Shown piece after piece: positions 4,060 to 51,375 of a stretch of 64,000 nucleotides of DNA. This DNA comes from Escherichia coli (GTDB lineage Bacteria; Pseudomonadota; Gammaproteobacteria; Enterobacterales; Enterobacteriaceae). The stretch is taken from the NCBI RefSeq assembly GCF_048403405.1, contig NZ_CP183129.1; one strand, 5' to 3'. Position 1 is the stretch's first letter, and the number at the start of each line of letters is the position of its first letter. The notes below the pieces were generated by a model that searched no databases, had not been told where the DNA came from, and was given only the letters and a program-made list of their open reading frames with translations. Position numbers and translations under genes: made by a program.

Positions 4060-4703
4060 CGCTGCAGCTCATCTAATGCAGGGGCGTCCAGATGCGAGAT
4101 GTCCCCTGCGGTTTCAACGACCCAGCCAGACGCCAGCCACAGGCTTTCCTGATAATCCACGCGCGAAATAGAACAGTTACGCAGACGTAAGCGGCGCTCT
4201 GCCCATGCTGGTAATCCGAGAATCGTACTCACCAGGCATCCCAGTGCAATACCATGGCTCACCAGCAGCGGTCGGCTTCCCTGCGGTAAGTCCCGGCAAG
4301 ATTCCAGTGCCGCATTGACGCGATCGCTGAGCTCCTGCATTGACTCGCCTTCAGGAATACGCCCGTCAACGGTGCCATTGACCAGCTGCCGACGCCAGTT
4401 CTCTTCTTCTTCGGTCAGAGAATCGATATGTCTTTTTTCCAGCACACCCATGTTTAATTCACGCAGGCGAGAATCAAAGATGATGTCACAGCCGCAGGCC
4501 TGGGCGATGATTTCCGCCGTACGCCGGGTGCGTCCTAAATCGCTACTGATGATATGCGTAATGCCAAGCTCTTTGGCACGGGTTGCCACCTGCATCGCCT
4601 GTTGCTCACCTTTGGCGGTCAGCGGGCTGTCAGACTGGCCCTGAATACGTCGCTCGGCGTTCCACTGCGTTTCACCGTGGCGGACTAGGTATACCTGTAA
4701 CAT
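4056..4703 (-). CDS. gpmB: probable phosphoglycerate mutase GpmB (histidine phosphatase family)
   Basis: 215 aa, RHGETQWN catalytic motif at N-terminus. Confidence 0.92.
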   Translation of the reverse strand: MLQVYLVRHGETQWNAERRIQGQSDSPLTAKGEQQAMQVATRAKELGITHIISSDLGRTRRTAEIIAQACGCDIIFDSRLRELNMGVLEKRHIDSLTEEEENWRRQLVNGTVDGRIPEGESMQELSDRVNAALESCRDLPQGSRPLLVSHGIALGCLVSTILGLPAWAERRLRLRNCSISRVDYQESLWLASGWVVETAGDISHLDAPALDELQR

Positions 4704-4742
4704 GCTTTTTTTCCGTATACTGCTGTAACGTTAATTTTCTGA

Positions 4743-5605
<863 letters not shown>

Positions 5606-34573: not shown

Positions 34574-35164
34574 ATGTCTCGAATTTTTGCTTACTGTCGG
34601 ATATCAACTCTGGATCAGACCACCGAAAATCAACGCCGGGAAATCGAAAGTGCAGGCTTTAAAATCAAACCTCAGCAAATAATCGAAGAACACATTAGCG
34701 GCTCAGCAGCAACCAGTGAGCGTCCTGGTTTTAACCGGTTGCTTGCTCGCCTGAAATGTGGTGATCAATTGATTGTGACAAAACTGGATCGCCTTGGTTG
34801 TAATGCAATGGATATCAGGAAAACAGTGGAACAACTGACCGAAACAGGTATCAGAGTGCATTGCTTAGCATTGGGGGGCATTGACCTGACCAGTCCAACA
34901 GGAAAAATGATGATGCAAGTAATTTCAGCAGTCGCTGAATTTGAACGAGACCTTTTACTTGAACGCACTCATTCCGGGATAGTAAGAGCCCGGGGCGCAG
35001 GGAAACGTTTTGGTCGACCACCTGTGTTAAATGAAGAACAGAAACAGGTGGTATTCGAACGAATTAAGTCAGGTGTAAGTATAAGTGCCATTGCCCGGGA
35101 ATTCAAAACCTCGCGGCAAACCATTTTAAGAGCCAAAGCAAAACTTCAGACACCTGACATATAA
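34574..35164 (+). CDS. pin: serine recombinase, Pin-type DNA invertase (PinR/PinQ-like)
   Basis: 196 aa; catalytic Ser region [15 protein letters not shown] motif, C-terminal HTH. Confidence 0.88.
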
Positions 35165-35391
35165 AAAATAATCTCGGTGTGAGATGCTTTACGTCTTCCA
35201 AGCCCCCTTCCTTGCCGTAAATGGAAAGATACATCTAATTATAGAATTTATATGTTTTACCCTACGGCAGTGCTGGCCATTCAATATCCTGTGCAGTTGA
35301 CGTATCAACACGGTTCAGCAACACCCGATACTTTTTCCAGGCTTCCAGCAACGGGGTTTCTTCCTCCGTTGCATATACAGCTCACCTTTTT

Positions 35392-35688
35392 TCACCCACG
35401 ATTAACCAACAGCCAGACCAGCAGACACGCCACCACCGGCACAGCAAAATCCATCAGGCTTGCCACATCCCACACGCGCGGATCAAAACCGCCCCACCAC
35501 GGCATGTTAATCCTCTTGCCATGCCCAAACATTTCAATCCAGCGATATTCCGCCTGGGTGTGTTCACGCGCAATGAAGAACGTACAACCGGCTATCGCCC
35601 CGTAAGCCCAGTTCCCGGTAAAAAGACCAACCAGTAGCTGCGCAGCCACAGCACAAAGCGCATGAAGGAAAGGTGTTATATCCATTTT
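35392..35688 (-). CDS. small 3-TM inner-membrane protein of unknown function (prophage accessory)
   Basis: MKMDITPFLHALCAVAAQLLVGLFTG...; three hydrophobic helices; between tail-fibre module and pin. Confidence 0.55.
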   Translation of the reverse strand, partial: KMDITPFLHALCAVAAQLLVGLFTGNWAYGAIAGCTFFIAREHTQAEYRWIEMFGHGKRINMPWWGGFDPRVWDVASLMDFAVPVVACLLVWLLVNRG

Positions 35689-35727
35689 CATCCTACCCAA
35701 TAAAACGGGGCGCTCGGCCCCTTGATA

Positions 35728-36768
35728 TTATTTAGACGCAAGCGCCGCCTCAATTGCAGATAATCTTTGTCTTAATTCTGCGTTTTCTTCTTCCAGTGCT
35801 GTTATTCTGTCGTCTGACTCTCTGGCTACCTGAACAAGCAAGCCAGTAACACCAGAATAATCTACTGTGTAATAACGTTCACCTTCTTCACCTTCCGATC
35901 CGCTTGCGCCGTCCTGATATTTCATTGCGGAACCTACAACTTCTGGGATTGCTTCCAGAGCTTCCTGTGCAATGACACCAGCATAGGGCATACCGTTTTC
36001 TTTAAGCGTGTATGTATAGCCGTTCATTTTACGGATGCGGTCGGTTGCATTATCGATCACCTGAATGTTGTCTTTCAGATCCCGGTCGGAATGCTGGTTA
36101 AATGCGGTGGCATGACATGCACCATTAACGCTTAACATATAGGTGTTATCGGTATTTTTTTGCGCATAGAACATATAAGCGCCACCATCAACACCGACTT
36201 CATAAACAACAGGACGGCTGGAGTTGCCCCACAATTGAGCAGTAACACCAGCATAAGCGGTTCCCTGTGTGTTTAATGTCATGGTTGACCCATGATTGGC
36301 ATATTTGATCTGTAATGTGTCGGTGTAATCAAATTTAATAAGCGCGTTACTTCCACGCTTGCTGTATGACATAAGGCAGTTACCCATTTTGAGGTATCCG
36401 CTGTCACCGGGAAAAATCATCGTACCGCCATAAAGGTTGGTAAAGTCCCAGCAAATGTTTGTCCCGTTATCGTTCAGGTTAAGGCGCGCCATTGCGTTAC
36501 CTGGACTGTCTATCCATTTTTTGAGGTATAGTTCGCAATACGCATCCTCAACACCTGCCGTCCTGTGAGTTGAGCGGAGTTTTCTCCCAAATATAGCTCC
36601 GCTAGTTGGCAATACCTGCTGATACCATGAAGCAGACCAGTCACCAACGATTTCATCTTTGCTGTCTACATATAATTTTGTTGCGTAGCTTCCTTGATCG
36701 TTTTTTAATTTGCTAACGTCGGATTTTAGCGTTTTGATGTCATCAGGAATTACTGTCGATGTAGCCAT
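35728..36768 (-). CDS. tail-fibre/tail-spike tip protein with C-terminal intramolecular chaperone (peptidase S74-like) domain
   Basis: 346 aa; C-terminus DLKDNIQVIDNATDRIRKMNGYTYTLKENGMPYAGVIAQEALEAIPEVV... typical of auto-cleaving chaperone domains of endosialidase and T5 pb1 type fibres. Confidence 0.7.
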   Translation of the reverse strand: MATSTVIPDDIKTLKSDVSKLKNDQGSYATKLYVDSKDEIVGDWSASWYQQVLPTSGAIFGRKLRSTHRTAGVEDAYCELYLKKWIDSPGNAMARLNLNDNGTNICWDFTNLYGGTMIFPGDSGYLKMGNCLMSYSKRGSNALIKFDYTDTLQIKYANHGSTMTLNTQGTAYAGVTAQLWGNSSRPVVYEVGVDGGAYMFYAQKNTDNTYMLSVNGACHATAFNQHSDRDLKDNIQVIDNATDRIRKMNGYTYTLKENGMPYAGVIAQEALEAIPEVVGSAMKYQDGASGSEGEEGERYYTVDYSGVTGLLVQVARESDDRITALEEENAELRQRLSAIEAALASK

Positions 36769-36777
36769 TTTTCTTCC

Positions 36778-37059
36778 TCACATCCAGCCACGAAGTTGAT
36801 GCTCAACAGCAACCACGTATTCATCGAATAATGACGATATTTGCGAATCATTAATGATGCGCACGTTTACAAAATATCCGTCTTCCTTAACACATACCGG
36901 TTCGCCATCTTCAGTCAGTTCTCCGGTTTCTTTGTACACGTTACCTATCACGTCAATAAGAATATCATCCTGCATCAACTCGTCATCATAATAGCCAATG
37001 CTCTCCATAAAGGCCGAAAAGTCGGCCCTGTCGGGAAATTTGAGTGTTAAATCTTTCAT
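36778..37059 (-). CDS. hypothetical 93-aa acidic protein between fibre genes (possible fibre assembly/adaptor)
   Basis: ORF with 1-nt overlap (ATGA) with stf stop; no recognised motif. Confidence 0.45.
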   Translation of the reverse strand: MKDLTLKFPDRADFSAFMESIGYYDDELMQDDILIDVIGNVYKETGELTEDGEPVCVKEDGYFVNVRIINDSQISSLFDEYVVAVEHQLRGWM

Positions 37060-39434
37060 TAGATTGACTCCCCCACCTGAGCATCAGTCAATGCCTTGTG
37101 CCATATTCTGAAATTCCTTACATGACCAAATAAATGACGTAACCCGGCTGTAGTCTGGCCTCCAATACGGATAATTGCGGTGTTCTGAATACAGGACCAT
37201 GTGGTTTTTGTTTCGCTGGATATACGCCCGTTACTTACTGCGCATGTAGACTGATCAGACTTTACACGCATCCCCATAACCATTTTTTCAAGTGATGCAT
37301 TTTCGTTTATCCGTCTGTTAGACCCACCAATATCGCAATAAGGAAATCCGTCGTAATCTGCTGAAGAACCGAAGCCAAGAATAATAGCCGCTCCGGTTTG
37401 ATGACCGCCGGTATCAAAAACACGCGGTGCTGCATTTGGCGTTTTATACCAGTTCTTATGTACCTCACAAAGAACCGTAAAAGGAAGATTATAAAGATTA
37501 TTCTTAATGGGAACTGTGACTATATCGCTTGCGCGGGTCGCCGCCGTCGTTCCTGATATAATAAAAGATGATACACAAGGCCCATTTTCTACTTGTGGGG
37601 TGGCCAGATAAATATAGTCACCAGATACGGTTGCCCCGCCCTGCTTAGGAGAATACTGTATCTGAGAACCTATTTTTAACTCCCCATCAATTGCCTGAAT
37701 TGTTGCCTCTGCAAAAATCCATCCGATAACTTCGTCCTTTCTGACTCTCGCTGTAATCCTTGAGGCAGCGCCGCCTGTCATATTAATTTCAAGCGTTTGT
37801 GTATCAATATACACATCACCAAGAAAAGTTGTTGCGCTACCGTCATATTTATCAAATCGGATACGCAACCTTACCTGCAGTTCTGTTTTAAAACGACATG
37901 AGGTTGTCACGTATTTATTATCGCCTGAGACATCAACTGACTTTGTTGCAGCAATTGATGCCATATTAATGGCTGAGGTTTGCCCAATCAGAGAATCGTT
38001 ACAGACAAACTTTCCATAGGTAAAACCAAAACTATCCGTCCCGGTTTCGGGAACATCCATATTTGACGATCGCCCCCAACTGGCAGGGCTTTCCGAATTG
38101 AGCATGTAGTTCGTTCTTTGCCCCTCAATAAGCAGGCCATCACGTTCAAACCGTGGCTCGTCAATGGCAGCCTCTGTCAGCACACCAGATTTATTAATAT
38201 AGGTTGCTTTCGATGCGCGTTTAAACTTAACAACCTTGTCGCCAGGCATCGTTATTTCATCATCACCAATAACAATCTTTTTATATGACGGCGAAAAGCC
38301 CGTAATCATATCCAGCGAATCGTTAAATGGTATCCACACATCAGGCAGCGGCTGTAAGACATATTTATACGGCTCCGCAGCCTGGCTTGCGTACTCTCTG
38401 GCTGCATCTTCGCTTGCTTTAGCTGCCGTCTGGCTTGCTGCCGATGCTTTCGCTGAGTTCGCAGCCGCTGTTTCGCTCACCTTTGCGTTGGTTTCACTGG
38501 TTTTTGCTGCTTTTTGACTGTTAGCTGATGCAGTGGCAGAAGCAGCAGCCGCGCTTGCAGAACCAGCTGCAGCACTCTCGCTTTCGGCTGCTGCATCCTG
38601 ACTGCTTTTCGCCGCAGTTTCGCTGGCTTTGGCATTCGTTTCGCTGGTCTTCGCTGCCGTCTGGCTGGACTTTGCGTTAGTTTCACTCGTCTTCGCTGCT
38701 TTCTGACTGTTAGCCGCAGCAGTTGCTGATCCAGCAGCTGAAGTCGCAGAACCGGCTGCCGCGCTCTCGCTTTCGGCTGCTGCATCCTGACTGCTTTTCG
38801 CCGCAGTTTCACTGGCTTTGGCATTCGTTTCGCTGGTTTTCGCTGCCGTCTGGCTGGACTTTGCGTTGGTTTCGCTCGTCTTTGCGGCTGTCTCGCTATT
38901 TTTCGCGTTGGTTTCTGATTTTTTGGCTGCTGTCGCGGAGTTTTCTGATGCAGTCTGTGAGGTCGCTGCCGCCTGTGCACTATTAGCTGCATTCGTTTCT
39001 GAGGTTTTCGCCGCGTTCTTCGATGATGCCGCTGCAGTTTCGGATTTCTTTGCCGCCGCTGCGCTCTGAGAGGCGGCTTCGGCGTTGCGTGCCGCTTCTT
39101 CCACCATTTCCTCAAAACGACGCAATGCCTCCGGCATGACATCATCTTCCGTCATGGCACCGAGAAAATCATTCAGCGTACCTGGTCTGGAACCTTCATA
39201 GACGGTAATGGTTCCGGCATGTGAAGGCGGAAAACCTTCAACAAGCAGGATAACGCTGTACTGGCCATACTCAACATCCATGCTGTAACGCCCGGCTTCA
39301 TCCGGATTTTCAGAGGCCACCGTGTTCACCAGTACCGTGGTGCTGTTACGCTTTGCCTTCAGTTGAATAGTGCAGTTCTGTATTGGTTTTCCCGCACCAT
39401 CTTTCAGCACACCTGAGATTTTTACTGCTGCCAT
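37059..39434 (-). CDS. stf: side tail fibre protein Stf (lambda-type N-terminus, divergent C-terminal receptor-binding part)
   Basis: N-terminus MAAVKISGVLKDGAGKPIQNCTIQLKAKRNSTTV... matches lambda Stf; Ala/Ser/Thr/Lys-rich repeats; C-terminal part resembles a lectin/LamG-like domain. Confidence 0.85.
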   Translation of the reverse strand: MAAVKISGVLKDGAGKPIQNCTIQLKAKRNSTTVLVNTVASENPDEAGRYSMDVEYGQYSVILLVEGFPPSHAGTITVYEGSRPGTLNDFLGAMTEDDVMPEALRRFEEMVEEAARNAEAASQSAAAAKKSETAAASSKNAAKTSETNAANSAQAAATSQTASENSATAAKKSETNAKNSETAAKTSETNAKSSQTAAKTSETNAKASETAAKSSQDAAAESESAAAGSATSAAGSATAAANSQKAAKTSETNAKSSQTAAKTSETNAKASETAAKSSQDAAAESESAAAGSASAAAASATASANSQKAAKTSETNAKVSETAAANSAKASAASQTAAKASEDAAREYASQAAEPYKYVLQPLPDVWIPFNDSLDMITGFSPSYKKIVIGDDEITMPGDKVVKFKRASKATYINKSGVLTEAAIDEPRFERDGLLIEGQRTNYMLNSESPASWGRSSNMDVPETGTDSFGFTYGKFVCNDSLIGQTSAINMASIAATKSVDVSGDNKYVTTSCRFKTELQVRLRIRFDKYDGSATTFLGDVYIDTQTLEINMTGGAASRITARVRKDEVIGWIFAEATIQAIDGELKIGSQIQYSPKQGGATVSGDYIYLATPQVENGPCVSSFIISGTTAATRASDIVTVPIKNNLYNLPFTVLCEVHKNWYKTPNAAPRVFDTGGHQTGAAIILGFGSSADYDGFPYCDIGGSNRRINENASLEKMVMGMRVKSDQSTCAVSNGRISSETKTTWSCIQNTAIIRIGGQTTAGLRHLFGHVRNFRIWHKALTDAQVGESI
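38560..38890. repeat. tandem duplication (about 186-bp unit) inside stf coding region
   Basis: Near-identical DNA blocks ...CTCGCTTTCGGCTGCTGCATCCTGACTGCTTTTCGCCGCAGTTTC... at about 38562-38700 and 38748-38890; protein repeat SETNAKSSQTAAKTSETNAKASETAAKSSQDAAAESESAAAGSA occurs twice. Confidence 0.8.
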
Positions 39435-39498
39435 ATCCACTCCACAAAAAAGCCCGCCTGAACCGGCGGGCTGTCATAACACTGTGTTACCTGGCTAA

Positions 39499-40098
39499 TC
39501 AGAATTTATAACCGACACCCACGATGAAACCGTCAGTGCGCCAGTCACCACTGCCGGAACCTTCATAAGCAAGGTCAATGGCCACGGATTCGGTCGGGTT
39601 AAACTGCACGCCAGCCCCCCACGCCAGAGACGTGTTGCTGTGGCGACCGTCATCACTTCCGGTCAGCACATCGTGCGTTTTCCCCTTGTTGTCAGTTACG
39701 CGGAGATAATCCCCGGAGAAGGTCGACACACGGCTGTAAGCCATACCCGCCATCGCATAAGCACTGAACCATTCATTCACGCGTACAGATGGCCCCGCCA
39801 TCATGCTGAACCAGCGGTTACGCACGGAATCTTCATGCCAGCGGGTATCGCTGTAATGCGTTTTTTGCTCATCTTTGGCATTGGCATAACTGAATGACGT
39901 CACCAGCCCCAGCGTGTCCGTAAATTCATAACGGTATTTCACGTTAATGCCCTTCAGGTCATCACTGCCTGGCATATCAGTATGGGTCTGAAGATACCCG
40001 GCGCTTAGTGTGGACTGATGCTCTGCTGCGCTCGCTGGCGTACCAGCGGCAACCAGCCAGACTACTGCGGACAGAATAACAGCACATAATTTACGCAT
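39499..40098 (-). CDS. lom: Lom outer-membrane protein (Ail/Lom family)
   Basis: 199 aa, signal peptide, beta-barrel ending ...GFIVGVGYKF; position between J and stf as in lambda. Confidence 0.88.
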   Translation of the reverse strand: MRKLCAVILSAVVWLVAAGTPASAAEHQSTLSAGYLQTHTDMPGSDDLKGINVKYRYEFTDTLGLVTSFSYANAKDEQKTHYSDTRWHEDSVRNRWFSMMAGPSVRVNEWFSAYAMAGMAYSRVSTFSGDYLRVTDNKGKTHDVLTGSDDGRHSNTSLAWGAGVQFNPTESVAIDLAYEGSGSGDWRTDGFIVGVGYKF

Positions 40099-40165
40099 AA
40101 TTACCTCTCGCTTTTCTGCAATAAAAAAGGCGTCATTTCTGACGCCCGTATTGGGGTTATAAAAT

Positions 40166-43100
40166 TCAGCTGATACTGATGCCTGCGGTGGCTTTCTTCA
40201 TCACCACAACCAGCAAATCGCTGATACTTGCTGTGGGATACCAGTCATTTACCAGCCATGCTGACACCGAAAACTCCAGCGTCATGTGACCGTGACCGGC
40301 AGGCATATCAATAACGCCACTGTAAATCAGCGTATTATCCAGCGCGGTACGGTTATAAATTTCAGCACCGTTTTTCCGCACTATCAGACGGCATGAGGAG
40401 TAAATATCAGTATGCTCTCTCTCATGTTTAGCGCCGCTGAATGCCACCGCCGGAATAACAATCTGCCGGTCAAACGGCTGATCGTCATAAATCCTGACGG
40501 TAATGGTCCCTGATGGCCACCGTTCCGGTGCACGGGAGTCCCGGGGGAAAGCTTTGCCCACTGTTTTAACGAGATCGCCTTCAATCTGGTTCGCGGACAG
40601 TTTTCCCAGAACCCGGCAGTTCTCGTTAATCGTGACGTTGTTGAGCGTCCCGGAGTTCGCATTCACGTTACCGCTGATATCGGCATTTTTCGCCGTCAGC
40701 CGCCCGTCCGGTGTCAGGGAAAATGCCGGAGGATTACCGCCGCTGGTAATGGTGGGAGCCGTCAGATATTTCAGGAACACTTCATTCATAAATATCTGAT
40801 CGCCCTGACCAACAAACATCGGCTTTGTGTTGCCATTCGCAGGATTAACCATCGCAATCCTGTCCGCCGCCAGCAGCACCTGACTCTGCATACCGTCAGG
40901 AGTATTCTCAATACCGGCACCAATACCCGCGATATAAAGGCGTCCGTCCTGCATCTGCTGCAGCTTCACAGCCCACATGCTGTTCAGGTTATTATTTGTA
41001 TCAACCTGAACCTTCTGTATCTGCTGAATTACCGCACTCTGGTCTTCCAGTTTATTATTGACGGTCTGCGTGATTTCATTGCTGACATCCGTAATGGACG
41101 TCCTGATTTCAGCCAGGTCAGGCGCAAGCTGACCGTTATCAATCTGCGTCCACAGCTCCTGAGCCAGATGGCTTTTCCCTATCTCGCCTTTGAAAAAATC
41201 CAGATAGCCGGATGCATCATCACTCGGCTGGCCAACAGCCTCCACAAATGCCGATTTGCCAACGGTGTTCACACTGCGGATGTAAAAATAATAATCATGG
41301 CCCGGTTTGATATTGATACTGGTGGCTATCCAGTACAGCGCCGTGCCAAGATAGCGGGCTGTGGTTTCAACCTGCCTGATATCGGTAATCCGCGTTTCCG
41401 AGAACCAGAACTCAAACTGTACCGTCGGATCATAAACCGCAAGATGCGGCGTGGCAGTTATCTGAAAATAGCCCGGCGTCAGCTCAATCCGCGACGGCGC
41501 TGCCGGTGCGGCAATCCGGAACGATACCGATGCCGGATCGCCCTGCTGTCCCCACGCATTTACCGCCCGGACCGTCAGCGTGTAACGCCCCAGCGCCAGT
41601 TGCCTGAAGCGGTATGTGGTTTCCGTCGTCCTGGCCGTGCTGACCAGCCGCTCACTGCCGTCGTCCGCTGCCACGGTCAGGCGAAGCAGGAAGCTCACGC
41701 CCTTCACCACCTTCGGCGTGTCCCAGCGGGCCAGTACCTGATACTCCCCGCTGTCTGCGGTGACTTCGGCAGTCAGGTGCTGCACCGCTGGCGGCGTGAC
41801 ACCATTCACCGTGCCGCTCTGGTCACCGTCAAAGTGCGCCCCGTTATCCACGATGGCTTCTTTCTCCGGTACATGCTGCACGGCGGTGATGGCATACGTG
41901 CCATCGTCGTTCTCACGGATACTCACACAGCGGAACAGGCGCTGGCGCAGCGTCGGCAGCTTCAGCCCCCATACGCTGTATTCAGCAACACTGTCAGGAA
42001 CACGGCTCACTTTTACCTTCACGCCGTCGGTGACGGACTGAACCTCCACGCTGACCGGATTGCCACTTCCGTCAACCAGGCTTATCAGCGTGGTACCGGA
42101 GGATGGCAGCGTGATTTCACGGTCGAGCGTCAGCGTCCGGGTCTGGCTGTTCACCGCCAGTACACGACCACCGGTGCTGATACCGGCATAGTCATCATCA
42201 CAGATTTCAATAACATCGCCCGGTACATGGCGAAGCCCTTCTGCGCCGACGCTGAAATCCACGGTCTGCGTTTCCAGCAGTTCCGTTTTAATCAGCCACA
42301 GCCCGGCGCGGTGTGCCTGCCCCCGGCTGGTACAGCCAAAGGCATCCATCTTCGTGACGTTACGACCGTAACGGGCAATGGCCTGCGTGTCCTCCACAAG
42401 CTCTGTCGCCGTCTCCCAGCCGTTGTTCGGGTCAATCCAGTTCACCTCAACGGCATTATGGCGGTCCTTCAGGGCGCTGAAGCTGTAGCGGAACGGCGCG
42501 CCATCATCCGGCATCACCACATTACTGCGGTTATAGGTCCACACCTTATCCGACGGTCGGTCCTGCACGAATGTCAGCGTCTGCCCGTTCCATACCGGCA
42601 TACAGCGCATCGCCGAGCAGAAATCACTGAGCACATCCCACGCCTTGCGCTGTGTGGCCAGGTACGCATTACAGGTGATGCGCGGCTCCGTGCCGCCAAA
42701 ACCATCCGGCACCGACTGGTCGCAATACTGGCTGATGACATACAGCGCCCATTTATCCACATCTGCCGCACCAAGACGTTTCCCCATGCCGTAGCGCGGA
42801 TGGGTCAGCATATCCCACAGACACCAGGCCATGTTGTTGCTGTATGCTGGCTTAAACGTTCCGTCCCAGATACCGCTGTATTGCCGCGTCTGCGGGTTAT
42901 AGTTCGACGGCACCTGCAGAATGCGCCCGCGAAGATGATAATTACGGCTCACCTGCTGGCTGCCGAACTGCTCCGAATCCACCTGCACGCCGACCAGTGC
43001 CGTGTTCGGGTAGCACTGTTTCACATCGATGATTTCGGTGTATGACGACCAGAGCGTTTTGTTCTGCAGCTGGTCTGTGGTGCTGTCCGGCGTCATTCTG

Positions 43101-43645
43101 CGCATCCGGATATTAAACGGGCGCGGCGGCAGGTTATCCACCACCACCGAGGCCAGATACTGTGAGGTGGTTTTGCCCTTAATGGTGATGTCTTTTTCCG
43201 TCACCCAGCCACCATTACGCTGTATCTGAACCAGCAGGCGAACTTCCGACAGATTCCGGTCCCCCTTTGAGGTGGTTTCCACCAGTGCCTGCACACCGAA
43301 GGTAAAGCGCAGACGGTCGATGTTTGCAGACGTGATGGTCCGGGTAATCGGCGTGTCGTACTTCACTTCCGTACCCAGCACCGTCTCGGAGCCGGAGGAT
43401 TCAAATCCCTCCGGCGGTGTCTGCTCCTGCTCACCTGCCCGGAACACCACCGTGACACCGGAGATATTGGTATTCCCCTCACTGTCCAGCACTGGCGTAC
43501 TGTTCAGCAGCACACTTTTTAATCCGTCCACCGGACCTTCAACCGGCCCTTCACTGATGGCGTCTATCACGCTCAGCATCTGGGATGATTTCAGGTTGTC
43601 CTTCGCTTCGCGCGGGGTATGCCCCTTACTGCTGCCTTTACCCAT
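40166..43645 (-). CDS. J: tail tip/host-specificity protein J
   Basis: 1159 aa, N-terminus [20 protein letters not shown]... as lambda J; C-terminal ~150 aa appears divergent from my recollection of lambda. Confidence 0.92.
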
Positions 43646-49454: not shown

Positions 49455-50195
49455 TTAACTGGCGGTGACGGTGATTTCTGCAACCGCAGCAAACTCACCA
49501 TTACCGGATACGACCGGAATGTTGACCTTACCTGCAGCAACGCCATTCACGGTGATGGTCATACCACTGACCGACACGGTGGCTTTTGTTTTATCCGCTG
49601 ACACCGCACGGAAGCTCTTGTCGGTTGCGCCTTCCGGCTGGAATGCCACGGTCAGCGTGGTGCTCTTCCCTTTCACTACGGAAGCGCTGGCTGGCGTCAC
49701 GGTCATACCGGTTGCCGCTGTTACCGTGCTGCGTTCTTCTGCCATCGACGGACGTCCCACATTGGTGACTTTCACCGTGCGGGTGATCACTTCCTTCGCC
49801 GTCACCGCCTTACCGATACTGCTGACCCAGCCACGGAACACATCGACCGTGCCGTTCGGGAAGCGGATTTTATAGGCACGGGTATCGCCTTCATTAAACC
49901 ACGCCAGCAGCGCCTGCTGCCCCTGCTCTCCGGGCATCCACGCCAGCGTGAAGCTGGTATCTCCGGCAGATTTCTGCCCCTGCCCGGTCGCGGTCCAGTC
50001 TGCATCTTCATCATCGAGATAGCTGTCGTCATAGGACTCAGCGGTCAGTTCGCCGGGCGTCAGGTCTTTAACTTTAGCCAGACGCGACCAGTCAACGTCT
50101 GAAAGCGGGTTCGCATAAGGGTCACCGTTCCCCTTATAAACCCACAGGGTGGTCCCGGCCCCTTTCACCGGCATTACTGGATTTGGTACAGGCAT
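49455..50195 (-). CDS. V: major tail protein V (with C-terminal Ig-like domain)
   Basis: 246 aa [36 protein letters not shown]..., near-identical to lambda V as recalled. Confidence 0.93.
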
Positions 50196-50267
50196 ATCGT
50201 CCTCACATTTCAGGTGATGCTGCCAACTTACTGATTTAGTGTATGATGGTGTTTTTGAGGTGCTCCA

Positions 50268-50543
50268 GTGGCTTCTGTTTCTATCAGCTGTCCCTCCTGT
50301 TCAGCTACTGACGGGGTGGTGCGTAACGGCAAAAGCACCGCCGGACATCAGCGCTATCTCTGCTCTCACTGCCGTAAAACATGGCAACTGCAGTTCACTT
50401 ACACCGCTTCTCAACCCGGTACGCACCAGAAAATCATTGATATGGCCATGAATGGCGTTGGATGCCGGGCAACCGCCCGCATTATGGGCGTTGGCCTCAA
50501 CACGATTTTCCGCCATTTAAAAAACTCAGGCCGCAGTCGGTAA
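50268..50543 (+). CDS. insA: IS1 InsA
   Basis: 91 aa [43 protein letters not shown]... Confidence 0.9.
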
Positions 50544-50965
50544 CCTCGCGCATACAGCCGGGCAGTGACGTCATCGTCTGCGCGGAAATGGACGAACAGT
50601 GGGGATACGTCGGGGCTAAATCGCGCCAGCGCTGGCTGTTTTACGCGTATGACAGGCTCCGGAAGACGGTTGTTGCGCACGTATTCGGTGAACGCACTCT
50701 GGCCACACTGGAGCGTCTTCTAAGCCTGCTGTCGGCCTTTGAGGTCGTGGTATGGATGACGGATGGCTGGCCGCTGTATGAATCCCGCCTGAAGGGAAAG
50801 CTGCACGTAATCAGCAAGCGTTACACTCAGCGAATTGAGCGGCATAACCTGAATCTGAGACAACATCTGGCAAGGCTGGGACGGAAGTCACTGTCGTTCT
50901 CAAAATCGGTGGAGCTGCATGACAAGGTCATCGGGCATTATCTGAACATAAAACACTATCAGTAA
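50462..50965 (+). CDS. insB: IS1 InsB (transposase, made as InsAB by frameshift)
   Basis: 167 aa ORF overlapping insA in -1 frame. Confidence 0.9.
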
Positions 50966-51375
50966 GTTGGAGTCATTACCCACATTTCATAGGTAATGAC
51001 ATAAGTCAGATCGGCTGAACTCCACAGGCCCGCATCATCGTCGCGCCGGTAGTCATAGCCGCTGGCCACCATACTGGTGATCAAATCTGACAGTGCCGGG
51101 ATATCACTCATCACCGGATAAATCCGGGACTCCATCCACTCATCCAGCTCTGAATCCGGCACCTGAGCAGGCAGGAAAACTTCGATATGCAGCTCCGCCT
51201 GCCAGGTATCGCTGTCCAGCTCTTCGCCCGTGTATTCAGCGCCGGTGAGATAAACGGCAACTGCCGGAAAATCCGCCTCATCAAAAACAGCGGGGCGACC
51301 ATCAAAAAACGTCGCCCCGGTGTCATGCTTCTCCAGTGCATCCAGTACGGCTGCACGGAGTTCAGTATGTTTCAT
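50959..51375 (-). CDS. U: tail terminator protein U; C-terminus altered by IS1 (7 extra codons read into IS1)
   Basis: 138 aa [31 protein letters not shown]...; ends ...ITYEM then WVMTPTY encoded by the IS1 end. Confidence 0.88.

Follow-up and report, generated by a model that had tools for sequence, protein, structure and literature searches.

A mosaic lambda-type tail protein J with a 1A2-type receptor-binding domain, predicted to use OmpC, in an Escherichia coli prophage

The tip attachment protein J of phage lambda binds LamB through its C-terminal receptor-binding domain (RBD). The 64,000-nucleotide stretch of E. coli DNA analysed here (contig NZ_CP183129.1; hereafter, the window) encodes a lambda-type J within a lambdoid prophage, which raises the question of whether this protein would also recognize lambda's receptor. 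The first-pass annotation, made from the sequence alone, had proposed that the C-terminus differs and that the element may use another receptor. We compared the window J with its relatives along its whole length, assigned its RBD to an allele and set that allele against proteins for which the receptor has been established by experiment.

Results

A lambda-type J gene in the tail operon

Six gpJ-specific Pfam families were found above cut-off in the J open reading frame, in the same order as in lambda (FNIII-A_GpJ, Phage-tail_3, Ig_J, Ig_J_second, Phage_Tail_Tip and Ig_GpJ_C). The protein has 1159 amino acids, compared with 1132 in lambda J. Open reading frames and the annotation of identical DNA place the gene in a tail operon of the order ...H-M-L-K-I-J-lom-stf, and the identical gene in strain MS 69-1 carries the RefSeq label gpJ. 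By domain set and gene position, this open reading frame encodes a lambda-type tip attachment protein J. Its subdivisions and downstream neighbours are as follows, with the names of the shaft and upper-fibre domains taken from the structural study of lambda (PMC11101478).

40166–43645, minus strand: J, tip attachment protein and central tail fibre; 1159 codons plus stop (open reading frame list and translation)
41231–43645, minus strand: J residues 1–805, hub and two Ig/FNIII domains, lambda-like by protein and DNA identity
40811–41230, minus strand: J residues 806–945, alpha-helical shaft and upper fibre, phage 21 type by identity comparison
40631–40810, minus strand: J residues 946–1005, conserved lower-fibre island, likely a natural recombination junction
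40169–40630, minus strand: J residues 1006–1159, Ig-like RBD of the 1A2/VT1-Sakai/PhiR55_1 allele, predicted to bind OmpC
40128–40147, minus strand: putative terminator-like hairpin with T-run, just 3′ of the J stop codon (consensus scan)
39499–40098, minus strand: lom, Ail/Lom outer-membrane protein, the next gene after J as in lambda (Pfam Ail_Lom)
37059–39440, minus strand: stf, side tail fibre of 793 amino acids, with Pfam phage_tail_N at residues 5–134

In phage 21, a terminator is annotated at the equivalent place after J. The Ail_Lom match spans the full length of Lom (423 bits), and the gene is syntenic with its counterparts in lambda, VT1-Sakai and PhiR55_1. The stf product, which contains alanine/serine-rich repeats with internal direct repeats in the DNA, is a second host-range determinant of the same tail as J.

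J diverges from lambda in two separate regions

Aligned by BLASTP, the window J and lambda J (J02459) share 83% identity overall, distributed very unevenly along the protein. Of the first 805 residues, 781 are identical (97%), but identity drops to 58/140 (41%) at residues 806–945, where the window protein has 28 additional residues, recovers to 53/60 (88%) at residues 946–1005 and falls again to 66/154 (43%) at residues 1006–1159. The lambda-like N-terminal part had initially been put at ~1000 residues; this holds for the first ~805 and fails for residues 806–945. The view that the last ~150 residues are unlike lambda is borne out by the final segment (window 40169–40630), where identity is clearly far from exceeding 95% through to the C-terminus. 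The interval first given for the divergence, 40166–40700, was close, with its part at 40631–40700 already lying in the conserved island. Against a background mismatch rate of 3%, finding at least 88 mismatches in 154 residues has a binomial probability of ~2e-91.

The DNA follows the same pattern. In 150-nt bins, identity to lambda is 90–99% up to window position ~41246, then 41–64%, 87% in the island at 40646–40795 and 52–59% from there to the end of the gene, while the G+C fraction drops from ~0.60 to ~0.50 at the first identity break. From L/K through J nucleotide ~2500, DNA identity to lambda is 94.5%.

The alignments proposed in the first-pass annotation gave RBD identities of 43% for lambda, 66% for phage 21, 21% for HK97 and 3% for phi80. 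At these values HK97 and phi80 J are too distant to be informative, and both were set aside as comparators.

The window J is a mosaic

Phage 21 (OL657228) matches the window protein at 98% over residues 1–805, 95% over residues 806–945 and 97% over residues 946–1005, with identity falling just downstream of this island to the 66% seen in the RBD. PhiR55_1 J is 98% identical over both residues 1–805 and residues 806–945, and 100% identical from residue 946 to the end of J, including 66 nt downstream. The island is also 100% identical to that of VT1-Sakai, whose DNA matches the window J at 60–85% in the first 2100 nt and at 97–100% from nt 2850. The window J is therefore a mosaic of residues 1–805, which lambda, phage 21 and PhiR55_1 all share, residues 806–1005 of phage 21 type and residues 1006–1159 of 1A2 type. 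The lambda h434 hybrids first showed that lambdoid phages exchange J C-termini as modules, and the swap of the RBD seen here, by recombination at a conserved linker, is ordinary lambdoid mosaicism. The switch lies in the island at residues 946–1005 (window 40631–40810), matching the stretch chosen for protein fusions by Broedel et al., who described their fusion point at lambda residue 964 as the 'last stretch of identity' (PMC11338833).

The divergent end is a gpJ receptor-binding domain

The Pfam family PF12421, Ig_GpJ_C ('Tip attachment protein J, C-terminal receptor binding domain'), covers residues 1029–1159 with a score of 128 bits (cut-off 26.2). A phmmer search of PDB sequences returned gpJ713 of A8 (9WCA/9WCB, E=4e-126), the nearest protein of solved structure, and of lambda (8XCJ/8XCK, E=1e-105). 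We also generated an AF2 monomer model of the last 225 residues of J. Its pLDDT was 72–94 by 10-residue block over residues ~1024–1152 and below 50 at fragment residues 1–88, the trimeric fibre part, where a poor score is to be expected of a monomer; only the RBD part was used. The top four Foldseek matches to this RBD were 9WCA, 8XCK, 8XCJ and 9WCB, all at a probability of 1.00, the last bearing the title 'Open state of A8 gpJ 713 central tail fiber with OmpC G17 from E. coli EDL933'. The divergent end of the window J is a gpJ receptor-binding domain with retained fold rather than a foreign domain.

Alignment of six RBD types revealed conserved loops (DDxxFD, NG and MPxGxG; 67–100% invariant) alternating with four variable or indel-bearing segments (0–12% invariant). 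This alternation fits a beta-sandwich that turns its constant end to the fibre and its variable end to the receptor. The lambda RBD uses four bottom loops, L1–L4 (PMC11101478), with which we equate the four variable segments, inferring that these are the receptor-contact loops.

The RBD belongs to the 1A2/VT1-Sakai type

PhiR55_1 (PV340571) and the window have RBDs with 100% identity in both protein and DNA; as this phage forms plaques, the allele is functional. VT1-Sakai shares 150 of the 154 residues (97%), the differences from the window being I1052V, R1076K, D1134N and S1157T. Of these residues, R1076 adjoins variable segment ii and D1134 is part of variable segment iv. At the DNA level, the RBD is ~97% identical to VT1-Sakai, PPompW prophages and many Stx1a/Stx2a phages; the allele is carried by numerous prophages both with and without Stx. 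Protein identity is lower for phi330 (63%) and h434 (45%), alongside the values for phage 21 (66%) and lambda (43%).

The sequence of gpJ 1A2 was taken from a noisy machine-read supplement (PMC11338833), in which frameshifting reading errors fragmented plain tblastn matches. No exact 12–20-mers of the window RBD DNA were found in this supplement because 1A2 is codon-recoded, and its J sequences were located by the J start instead. In a frameshift-tolerant alignment, 1A2 is identical to the window RBD in 137 of the 146 readable columns, 8 columns being unreadable, whereas A8 is identical in only 91 of 154. At all four sites that vary between the window and VT1-Sakai, 1A2 has the VT1-Sakai residue, and the real differences between the window and 1A2 number ~4–5, comprising I1052V, R1076K, D1134N, S1157T and possibly one F/L change that may be a misreading in the PDF text.

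The window RBD is near-identical to the 1A2/VT1-Sakai type over its whole length, without indels. It is neither the phage 21/A8/phi330-type allele (63–66% identity, other loop lengths) nor the 434-type allele (45% identity, other loop lengths), and it is not the LamB-specific allele of lambda, from which an identity of only 43% and indel-bearing variable loops set it apart.

Tested relatives point to OmpC

In the work of Broedel et al. (Nature 2024), C-terminal parts of J from natural prophages were joined to lambda J at its residue 964 (PMC11338833). Chimaeras carrying the 1A2 and A8 C-termini delivered DNA via OmpC and no longer used LamB, in an assay host that lacked both lamB and ompC and received OmpC alleles by complementation; 1A2 delivered with EDL933 OmpC and failed with MG1655 OmpC, while both worked for A8 (PMC11338833). 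Other members of the wider family agree. The long-tailed Stx phage phi330 does not plate on K-12 lacking ompC, a defect that complementation reverses (PMC12502783), and the classical h434 allele likewise uses OmpC (PMC11101478, PMC3509688). Structural work on lambda found that OmpC loops clash with its open RBD (PMC11101478), so LamB and OmpC specificities need different loops. For PhiR55.1, ManYZ is reported not to be needed (PMC13190303). A 2026 receptor-prediction preprint addresses Drexlerviridae-type GpJ, excludes the lambda RBD and has no bearing on the window allele.

On this comparative evidence, the receptor of the window J is very likely not LamB, in line with the original suggestion of a different receptor: its RBD is near-identical to that of gpJ 1A2, an OmpC user. 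By homology at 97% identity to a tested protein, the predicted receptor is OmpC, recognized in an allele-dependent manner. In the proposed mechanism, three copies of the Ig-like beta-sandwich would form the tip of the central fibre, as in lambda, and insert their far-end loops into the outward-facing opening of a porin trimer, with binding to the porin triggering tail opening. The rewritten loops would lead to recognition of OmpC rather than LamB, and OmpC of EDL933 type would be preferred over that of K-12 type. We consider this account as a whole, that is, a mosaic J with a 1A2-type RBD that uses OmpC allele-dependently in place of LamB, to be probably correct.

An IS1 insertion upstream of J

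The lambdoid prophage is integrated adjoining prfC, has a DinI-like gene at ~33103 and extends beyond the end of the window, with head, terminase and lysis genes coming after the tail genes. A search for inverted repeats around the serine recombinase yielded no convincing crossover sites. The late operon is interrupted upstream of J by an insertion sequence.

50213–50980, 768 bp: IS1, lying upstream of J in the late operon and separating tail genes U and V

This element ends in IS1 terminal repeats and is flanked by a 9-bp target duplication, TGAAATGTG, and its transposase is annotated in near-identical strains. It sits exactly on the stop codon of U, which gains seven residues, and splits U from V and every downstream tail gene, J included. 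In the close relatives YDC107 and OU701452, the same prophage is free of IS1. In MS 69-1, the DNA is identical over window 18958–50981, with RefSeq annotation of gpJ, Lom, tail fibre and others, and the locus is reduced to tail genes, everything beyond IS1 being deleted. The nearest complete genome, TUM1226 (99.25%), holds a full lambdoid prophage, including heads, lysis and regulation.

With IS1 at the U/V junction, expression of J from this prophage may be lowered or lost. J could accordingly be a silent passenger in a crippled prophage, serving only as material for recombination, a reading to which the position of IS1 upstream of V through J, the extension of U by seven residues, the cut-down locus of MS 69-1 and the mutation-split J of VT1-Sakai itself all lend weight. 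We nevertheless regard it as rather doubtful: J is an uninterrupted open reading frame of 1159 codons with RBD DNA that agrees at 100% with PhiR55_1, a phage that forms plaques, the remainder of the prophage is present in TUM1226, and the IS1 target duplication restores the ribosome-binding site of V. Moreover, whether J is expressed has no bearing on what the protein would bind, and this reading is compatible with recognition of OmpC.

Alternative specificities of the RBD

Starting from OmpC as the predicted receptor, the four substitutions relative to 1A2 could shift the preference among OmpC alleles. Under this alternative, the sub-allele that the window has in common with PhiR55_1 (I1052, R1076, D1134 and S1157), with its 4–5 substitutions, would accept a set of OmpC alleles other than that of 1A2 or bind another or an additional outer-membrane protein. 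Two of the changes, R1076K and D1134N, fall within or next to segments that differ from one receptor type to another, and a few point mutations in lambda J suffice to add OmpF (PMC3509688). The J protein of Gifsy-1 binds OmpX and BtuB besides OmpC (PMC12312913), so to assume only one receptor may be an oversimplification. PhiR55_1, moreover, was deposited with E. coli C, not K-12, as its host. However, all four changes are conservative (I/V, R/K, D/N and S/T), the RBD is 97% identical to those of VT1-Sakai and 1A2, and RBDs at only 63–66% identity (phi330 and A8) still use OmpC. We therefore judge such a shift unlikely.

Finally, drift of the RBD in sequence with LamB binding kept, although it would accord with the shared fold and Pfam family of the lambda RBD and with LamB and OmpC both being trimeric porins, is highly improbable given the 43% identity to lambda, the variable segments that are 0–12% invariant and bear indels, the ability of the near-identical 1A2 to deliver into a lamB deletion in dependence on the OmpC supplied (PMC11338833) and the clash of OmpC loops with the open lambda RBD, which calls for different loops (PMC11101478).

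Discussion

Prevalence and implications

The OmpC-type RBD predicted here is not confined to this prophage. Megablast with the 465-nt RBD-coding segment detected the window-type RBD in 3397 of the 5426 complete E. coli genomes, and 2524 records reached ≥95% identity. The corresponding lambda segment was found in 98 of the 5426, the listed examples being largely laboratory strains of K-12 and BL21(DE3). The window-type allele is the commonest RBD in E. coli prophages, whereas the lambda RBD is a rare outlier. For annotation, this means that a 'lambda J-like' label should not imply LamB binding. The type of RBD further predicts that the prophage, or recombinants gaining its tail genes, would target strains with the right OmpC allele. 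Should the specificity of the sub-allele differ from that of 1A2, a few conservative changes in the commonest RBD would tune which lineages can be lysogenized.

Comparison with known systems

The allele (as gpJ 1A2), the mechanism, the recombination junction and the structure of a sister allele (9WCB) have all been published and are already known. The closest tested protein, gpJ 1A2, has an RBD that agrees with that of the window in length, in loop sequences and in the C-terminal motif ending in (S/T)IS. It is a codon-recoded gene on a pure lambda scaffold, whereas the window gene has a shaft of phage 21 type.

Among natural elements, PhiR55_1 and VT1-Sakai/Sp15 (AP000400) share the J-lom-stf gene order of the window. 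The head and early region of PhiR55_1 differ, with only short parts aligning to the window. In VT1-Sakai, J is split by mutation, whereas the window J is uninterrupted, and the N-terminal 700 residues of J share only 60–85% DNA identity with the window. Phage 21 J is close in length (1160 amino acids) and in its long shaft, but its RBD is of the A8/phi330 type, two loops of which contain additional residues.

That type shares a domain family with the window RBD. Both the fold and the domain family are common to A8 gpJ713, solved in closed (9WCA) and open, EDL933 OmpC-bound (9WCB) states, and phi330 J, an OmpC user on K-12 (PMC12502783), belongs to the same RBD family. The A8/phi330 RBDs are 59–66% identical to that of the window, with segments i and ii of other length: relative to the phage 21/A8/phi330 type, loop i of the window is 4 residues longer and loop ii is 5 shorter. 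A8 can use OmpC of K-12; the 1A2 type cannot. The 434 RBD (45% identity to the window) binds OmpC through a third, independent allele. Lambda J itself (P03749; 8XCJ/8XCK) has the same architecture and mechanism as the window protein, with near-identical hub and Ig domains, but its RBD binds LamB.

Distribution of the receptor-binding domain and divergence within the J shaft

A search of 5426 complete E. coli genomes found DNA encoding the window-type receptor-binding domain (RBD; 40166-40630) in 3397 of them, at a median of 2 and a maximum of 10 places per genome. Lambda's own RBD (L001, the lambda record: 4443-4904) was found in 98 genomes of the same set, and its carriers among the matches listed were mostly laboratory strains. 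An annotation of 'lambda J-like' should not be taken to mean LamB binding.

J carries a second divergent block, overlooked in the first-pass annotation:
40811-41230, alpha-helical shaft and upper fibre (J residues 806-945)

This block shares 95% identity with phage 21 versus 41% with lambda, and the shaft and upper fibre of the window J are 28 residues longer than those of lambda. In lambda J, the shaft/upper-fibre segment refolds upon receptor binding.

Side tail fibre gene and the region beyond it

The tail-fibre genes and the region 3' of stf (34574-36768), which holds four features, are arranged as follows:
37059-39440, side tail fibre gene (stf), 793 aa
within 34574-36768, 93-aa ORF downstream of stf
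within 34574-36768, 346-aa tail-fibre protein carrying Peptidase_S74, an intramolecular chaperone domain
within 34574-36768, truncated tail-fibre-assembly gene
34574-35164, Pin/Hin-type serine recombinase

The middle part of stf is long, repetitive and rich in Ala, Ser and Thr, with KTSETNAK-like units, and the gene contains direct DNA repeats (38481-38704 and 38670-38893; 88% identity, ~189 nt apart). The stf region seems to vary among close strains, since its counterpart in TUM1226, the nearest complete genome, is annotated as split. Downstream, the arrangement of tail-fibre genes and recombinase looks like what is left of an invertible tail-fibre switch; an inverted-repeat search near the recombinase gave no convincing inverted crossover sites.

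IS1 insertion at the U/V junction

The junction comprises the following features:
49455-50195, V ORF
50213-50980, IS1, 768 bp, with a 9-bp target duplication
50959-51375, U ORF

The insertion, with TGAAATGTG as its duplicated target, falls precisely on the U stop codon, and U gains 7 residues (WVMTPTY) encoded by the IS1 end. The duplication restores the sequence 5' of the V ATG. Downstream of the element come V and the other tail genes as far as stf, and each could be subject to polarity from it. Relatives carry an IS1-free version of the prophage; in strain MS 69-1, everything past IS1 is gone.

Tail-tip module shared with PhiR55_1

Phage PhiR55_1 (L003) and the prophage of the window both carry the M-J-lom-stf block, at 91% identity over 7.9 kb and 100% from J residue 946 to beyond the stop codon. 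The head and early genes of PhiR55_1 differ from those of the prophage. The tail-tip module thus transfers as one unit among otherwise unrelated lambdoid phages.
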